Assembly: GCF_056712565.1 (NCBI RefSeq)
Contig: NZ_CM160072.1
Reading direction: 5' to 3' (one strand)
Length of the DNA stretch: 64,000 nucleotides
Shown here: in pieces, positions 50,154 to 50,169 of the stretch
How positions within the stretch are numbered: the first letter of the stretch is position 1
Layout of the letters: every line of letters begins with the position of its first letter
Translations under genes and position numbers: made by a program
Notes under the pieces: model-generated
The model's input: only the letters and a program-made list of their open reading frames with translations
Databases searched by the model: none
What the model was told of the DNA's origin: nothing

Positions 50154-50169
50154 TCGCAAACGTTTGCTT
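50154..50169. promoter_or_regulatory. PurR operator (PUR box) TCGCAAACGTTTGCTT in purM upstream region
   Basis: Near-perfect match to the PUR-box palindrome ACGCAAACGTTTGCGT, located about 65-80 bp upstream of the purM start. Confidence 0.8.

Follow-up and report, generated by a model that had tools for sequence, protein, structure and literature searches.

The upp-purM region and its genomic context

The window analysed here, a stretch of 64,000 nucleotides, is a segment of the Escherichia coli chromosome. From position 38880 to approximately 59900 it is collinear with E. coli ATCC 11775, and all the 500-bp blocks of this segment are 100% identical to that strain, except for one (99.8%); given this near-identity, the RefSeq annotation of ATCC 11775 applies to the region. 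The genes are ordered hda, uraA and upp, on the minus strand, followed by purM, purN, ppk and ppx, on the plus strand. According to this annotation, upp occupies positions 49283–49909 (−) and is separated from purM (50233–51270, +) by a divergent intergenic region of 323 bp, which holds the PurR operator (PUR box) examined in this work. The first gene of the regulated operon, purM, codes for AIR synthetase and starts with GTG; its stop codon is overlapped by the start of the second operon gene, purN (51270–51908, +), coding for GAR transformylase, as indicated by both the annotation and the list of open reading frames.

The sequence from 50100 to the purM start, covering the last 130 bp or so before the GTG, is identical to that of K-12 MG1655. 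The differences from K-12 in the intergenic region, comprising 10 substitutions and an A/T tract that is shorter by 1 bp, are all located nearer upp. The corresponding tract near upp, at 49937–49943, is also 1 bp longer in most of the E. coli matches over the region, and its shorter length in the window could reflect either genuine variation or a sequencing error in the homopolymer. The length of this tract is reported to matter for the UTP-dependent control of upp by reiterative transcription, according to the work of Cheng, Dylla and Turnbough (2001) as cited in PMC6245113. A second element on the upp side, TTGACTTTAGTCAA (49990–50003), corresponds to the FNR site described upstream of upp (PMC3266220) and is identical in K-12.

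Further from purM, bcp is directly followed by yfgO both in the window (approximately 43760–43860) and in ATCC 11775, and hyf is absent from both. The hyf (hydrogenase 4) operon sits between bcp and yfgO in K-12, and because it is missing here, purC and purM are only some 10 kb apart in the window. After yfgI (approximately 59950–64000), the window departs from its collinearity with ATCC 11775, where guaA comes next, and carries the end of a prophage on the minus strand, indicating that the source strain is not ATCC 11775. This prophage end includes a DUF2514/Rz-like gene (60120–60602, −) and genes for a GH19 endolysin (60820–61611, −), a holin (61731–62135, −) and an endosialidase tail-spike (62442–63845, −). 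The best matches of the prophage stretch were O2:K1-type APEC/ExPEC genomes, with 99.5% identity, and only 71 genomes covered at least 80% of it; the prophage is probably specific for the K1 capsule. We also searched the window for the known PurR site of guaBA and found none, because the window runs into the prophage after yfgI and guaBA lies outside it. An Rfam scan of the whole window yielded a single match at the gathering threshold, naRNA4 (RF02564), a REP-derived nucleoid-associated RNA located at 11049–11130 (−; 75.5 bits), and hence no match in the upp-purM region.

Sequence and score of the purMN PUR box

Direct reading and a string search of the window located TCGCAAACGTTTGCTT at 50154–50169 (+), exactly where an earlier, sequence-only reading of this DNA had placed a PUR box upstream of purMN. 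The box starts 244 nt from the ATG of upp and ends 63 nt before the GTG of purM. It contains a perfect 12-bp palindrome, GCAAACGTTTGC, with the central CpG at 50161–50162. Self-complementarity extends to 12 of the 16 positions, and the symmetry is lost in the right half, at its two outermost positions. The box agrees with the published PurR consensus, ACGNAAACGTTTGCNT (PMC3159470), at 13 of the 14 specified positions. Its earlier description as a near-perfect PurR operator was thus fair, the exception being this loss of symmetry at the right end.

Two other candidate features of the intergenic region were discarded. A role of the palindrome as a hairpin or terminator was rejected because it has no loop, is not followed by a T-run and lies upstream of the inferred transcription start, and because a terminator scan was negative. 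The PUR-like half-site CCGAAAACGATCCTTT, at 50069–50084, was rejected because it lacks conservation even in K-12, where the sequence reads CCGAAAACTAACCTTT, and because it is not among the top scores obtained with the position weight matrix (PWM).

This PWM was constructed from 27 of the 28 ChIP-supported PurR motifs in Table 1 of PMC3159470, leaving purMN out. The purMN box scored 17.3 bits, as compared with 12.1–25.5 bits (median 20.7) for the training sites, and still reached 17.0 bits when the matrix omitted all four sites expected in the window. The matrix scan, which the sequence-only reading had proposed as a check on the box, therefore places it above the weakest accepted sites and not below threshold. 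Among all the positions of the window, on both strands, the box ranked third, with only the purC operator (40582) and a site inside uraA ahead of it.

Scores of this magnitude also occur in random sequence. In 200 Markov-1 random sequences of 64 kb, we found a mean of 0.25 positions with at least 17.3 bits, and 46 of the sequences contained at least one, equivalent to a chance occurrence approximately once per 250 kb. A search of the window for the perfect palindrome, allowing for mismatches, produced three matches with three or fewer mismatches versus 0.78 expected. The PWM score alone is not decisive; it is the position and the conservation of the box that argue for more than chance. A chance palindrome without a regulatory role is an explanation that draws on this expectation of 0.25 matches per random 64 kb, and also on the 18.1-bit PUR-like 16-mer found in the uraA coding sequence, where no ChIP signal was reported, which exemplifies a good match without detected binding. 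However, the box appears in the single stretch of 323 bp where one would expect it, and the chance expectation scaled to this intergenic region is only about 0.0013 positions with at least 17.3 bits. This, together with the binding of the same sequence in K-12 and its conservation across species, described below, makes a chance origin extremely improbable.

Published evidence from E. coli K-12

The purMN operator of K-12 is the same 16-mer as in the window, with the same flanking genes in the same orientation, and neither the operator nor the core promoter shows any difference between them. In K-12, TCGCAAACGTTTGCTT is the PurR motif inside the PurR-bound region of purM-purN identified by ChIP-chip (Cho 2011, PMC3159470 Table 1), which argues directly against a chance palindrome. 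The log2 enrichment of this region was 2.08 with adenine and 0.98 without it (PMC3159470). The same work counts purMN among the units of the IMP pathway repressed by PurR-hypoxanthine, supporting the purine-repressible purMN operon that the sequence-only reading had invoked; direct activation of any gene by PurR was not seen (PMC3159470). Additionally, Liu et al. (2011) cloned the upp-purMN intergenic region at high copy and found that deletion of AAACGTTTGCTT reduced the protective phenotype of the clone, which was attributed to the titration of PurR (PMC3266220). A review from 2024 takes purMN as its example of repression by PurR, and the works that it cites for the purMN operator (He et al. 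1990; Meng et al. 1990) place it in the literature since 1990 (PMC10912719). The purMN PUR box is, then, an already known, textbook operator, which was confirmed genome-wide in 2011.

The purR gene, which is not within the window, occurs in 5424 of the 5426 complete E. coli genomes, suggesting that the source strain very probably contains it as well.

Conservation of the PUR box

The 381 bp around the purMN box match E. coli ATCC 11775 with 100% identity, and 5424 of the 5426 complete E. coli genomes contain this region. Most of these genomes are only 95–99% identical over the 381 bp, whereas 5418 of 5421 E. coli genomes share an identical 32-mer centred on the box.

For comparisons across species, we scanned with the leave-one-out matrix the 400 bp upstream of purM in 80 gammaproteobacterial loci, using one genome per species. 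A PUR box of at least 12 bits was present upstream of purM in 65 of the 80 species, with its centre 52–140 nt (mostly 57–93 nt) before the purM start codon. In contrast, none of the 80 loci contained a box of at least 12 bits in any of three control windows inside purM and purN, and the median best score was 17.2 bits upstream of purM versus 2.2–4.2 bits in the controls. The loci with a box belong to Enterobacterales, Pasteurellales, Vibrionales and Aeromonadales (Aeromonas). No box of at least 12 bits was found upstream of purM in the Alteromonadales-type genera Shewanella, Rheinheimera, Alishewanella, Arsukibacterium and Pseudidiomarina, nor in the Orbaceae loci (a Gilliamella and another Orbaceae bacterium), and two Pasteurellaceae, Cricetibacter (10.8 bits) and Spirabiliibacterium (3.5 bits), remained below this threshold.

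When 66 loci were stacked on the box, its mean information content was 1.70 bits per column, with positions 2–14 nearly invariant, as compared with 0.17 bits per column in the 45 nt upstream; conservation fell to background immediately upstream of the box. Both the recurrence of an orthologous box at a similar distance in 65 of 80 species, against 0 of 80 in the controls, and this sharp upstream limit are contrary to what a chance palindrome would give. Conservation, within E. coli and across species, is the strongest evidence that we computed for the purMN box.

Predicted geometry of the purMN promoter

The stack also revealed a motif, TGnTAnnnT, downstream of the box in 64 of the 66 loci, starting exactly 4 nt after the box in 47 of them; its commonest form, TGTTAGAAT, occurs in 42 loci. 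From this conservation, we predict that TGtTAGAAT, at 50174–50182 (+), is the extended −10 of the purMN promoter. With a 17-bp spacer from this conserved −10, the putative −35 would be the weak hexamer TCGCAA (50154–50159, +), which matches TTGACA at three of six positions and coincides with the left half of the operator. A consensus sigma-70 scan did not detect any plus-strand promoter in 49850–50300, because of the weakness of the purMN −35.

The predicted −10 is directly followed by a GC-rich discriminator, TGCGCCG (50183–50189, +), which is conserved across orders as TGCGCCG, TGCCGCG or AGCGCCG and is kept from Enterobacterales to Vibrionales. This discriminator resembles those of promoters inhibited by ppGpp/DksA. 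If transcription of purMN begins, as is usual, some 7 nt after the −10, its start would be at approximately 50189–50190, and the box would then extend from about −36 to −21 (centre near −28.5). This placement agrees with the statement that the PurR site is "28 nucleotides upstream" (PMC3266220), and also with the general location of PurR sites between the −35 and −10 elements (Cho 2011, PMC3159470).

The spacing differs in Vibrionales (loci L051, L059, L062, L065, L068, L073 and L075–L077, compared with L004–L045), where the PUR box lies around 15 nt before the extended −10, as opposed to 4 nt in Enterobacterales and most Pasteurellales. This shift, of around one helical turn, locates the box over and upstream of the −35 instead of over the −35 and spacer.

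The evidence shown here consists of the sequence identity, the binding of PurR to this 16-mer in vivo in K-12, which adenine enhances, the conservation of the box and its geometry with respect to the conserved −10; no result contradicted it. We are almost certain that TCGCAAACGTTTGCTT is the PurR operator of the purMN operon, and the source strain would be expected to behave like K-12.

Divergent upp-uraA operon and other LacI-family regulators

The location of the box in a divergent intergenic region, and the fact that PurR also controls the pyrimidine genes codBA, pyrD, carAB and pyrBI (PMC3159470), raise the idea of a shared operator that would also repress the upp-uraA operon. Nevertheless, the sole promoter-like site on the minus strand, with hexamers at 49978–49951, lies some 175 bp away from the box, a distance too great for occlusion. 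PurR, a dimeric repressor, is not known to form DNA loops, which also counts against control over such a distance. Moreover, the ChIP region was assigned only to purM-purN (Cho 2011, PMC3159470), and upp has its own UTP-sensitive control and FNR site. We consequently give hardly any credence to a shared operator. The earlier proposal of the box as an anchor for the divergent upp/purM control region remains valid as regards its use as an anchor, although we found no evidence for control of upp by the box.

The operators of the LacI family have in common a central A/T-CG-A/T core, and the purMN box could in principle serve chiefly a different member of the LacI/GalR family with the shared AAACGTTT core (GalR/GalS, RbsR, Cra or CytR), with PurR acting secondarily. 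The gal OE/OI, rbs and cra operators are, like the purMN box, palindromes of 14–16 bp that have an A/T-rich core and CG at their centre; at the purR gene, sites found for GalR by ChIP overlap the PurR operators (PMC5110547); and RbsR, the closest solved relative of PurR that we found, is reported to affect purine genes (PMC10912719). Conversely, the specificity positions of the gal, rbs and cra operators are unlike those of the purMN box, and the GC...GC flanks of its core are those of the PurR consensus (PMC3159470). With a GalR matrix derived from 19 ChIP-inferred sites (PMC5110547), the purMN box scored at most 7.1 bits, as compared with 14.4–22.8 bits for the ChIP-inferred GalR sites, and 18 positions of the window equalled or exceeded it, indicating that the box does not belong to the GalR/GalS operators of the GTGnAAnCGnTTnCAC type. 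A purMN peak is also absent from the GalR ChIP-chip list (PMC5110547). On the basis of these GalR results and of the flanks of the core, a primary role for one of these other regulators is barely conceivable, and we retain the purMN box as a PurR operator.

Other PurR-like sites in the window

The best match to the PurR matrix in the window, with 19.9 bits, is the PurR operator of purC, ACGCACACGTTTGCGT (40582–40597, +), situated between purC (39715–40428, −) and bamC and identical to the ChIP-bound motif of K-12 (PMC3159470). It belongs to the same regulon as the purMN box and is likewise built of 16 bp around a central CpG, being nearer to a full palindrome (one mismatch versus two in the purMN box). 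The purC start codon follows at a distance of about 154 nt, and the promoter geometry may therefore differ from that of purMN.

A site on the minus strand, CCGGAAGCGATTGCCT (44858–44873, −; 15.7 bits), corresponds to the "yfgO/yfgC" PurR ChIP motif first reported by Cho 2011 (PMC3159470). Following the RefSeq annotation, it falls within the 5' end of the yfgO coding sequence and is not intergenic.

The site inside uraA, ACGGCAACGATTGCGC (48806–48821, +), scored 18.1 bits, above the purMN box, and a single base distinguishes it from the yieG operator, ACGGCAACGATTGCGT, which is ChIP-bound. Its surrounding 32-mer was recovered without change from 5420 E. coli genomes. The list of Cho 2011 contains no PurR-bound region at this position (PMC3159470), and the site may be due to chance or be an undetected site of the roadblock type. 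We also considered that the uraA 16-mer and the purMN box could act together, with PurR dampening upp-uraA by a roadblock as described for purB; this is very unlikely, because Cho 2011 reports no ChIP signal there. If true, such a roadblock in uraA would link the purine status of the cell to the salvage of uracil, since upp-uraA is a pyrimidine-salvage operon.

Proposed mechanism of purMN repression by PurR

Structures of PurR are available in the PDB, for instance 1pnr and 1bdi, which are operator complexes showing the mode of binding. This mode was reportedly established by Schumacher et al. in 1994 (cited in PMC10912719). The 1pnr complex, containing PurR, hypoxanthine and the purF operator, represents the same protein and the same class of operator as the purMN box, and the same mode of binding, with helix-turn-helix contacts and hinge helices in the minor groove at the CpG, should therefore apply to the latter. 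The DNA in the crystal is the purF operator, which reads AAGAAAACGTTTGCGT on one strand in the table of Cho (PMC3159470); the purMN box differs from it, carrying C at position 4, where purF has A, and T at positions 1 and 15. In the mechanism summarized for PurR, hypoxanthine or guanine acts as corepressor, the helix-turn-helix recognizes the palindrome, the minor groove is opened and access of RNA polymerase is lost (PMC10912719).

Applied to the window, this mechanism would have the PurR dimer, together with its corepressor, bind the 16-bp imperfect palindrome under an abundant supply of hypoxanthine or guanine. Its helix-turn-helix motifs would contact the two GCAAAC half-sites, while the hinge helices would insert at the central CpG, into the minor groove, and produce a kink in the DNA. 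Bound PurR would cover the −35 hexamer and most of the spacer, ending 4 nt before the extended −10. Since the box overlaps the −35 and spacer of the predicted promoter, bound PurR would occlude RNA polymerase, which would be kept off the purMN promoter, leading to repression of purM and purN.

The purMN box serves as an annotation anchor, defining where the purMN promoter lies and how the upp/purM control region is oriented. The purMN, purC and yfgO sites jointly constitute a positive control, indicating that real sites in the window can be retrieved with a simple PurR matrix. The comparison across species adds a small observation, namely that the box, the extended −10 and the GC-rich discriminator are co-conserved from Enterobacterales to Vibrionales.
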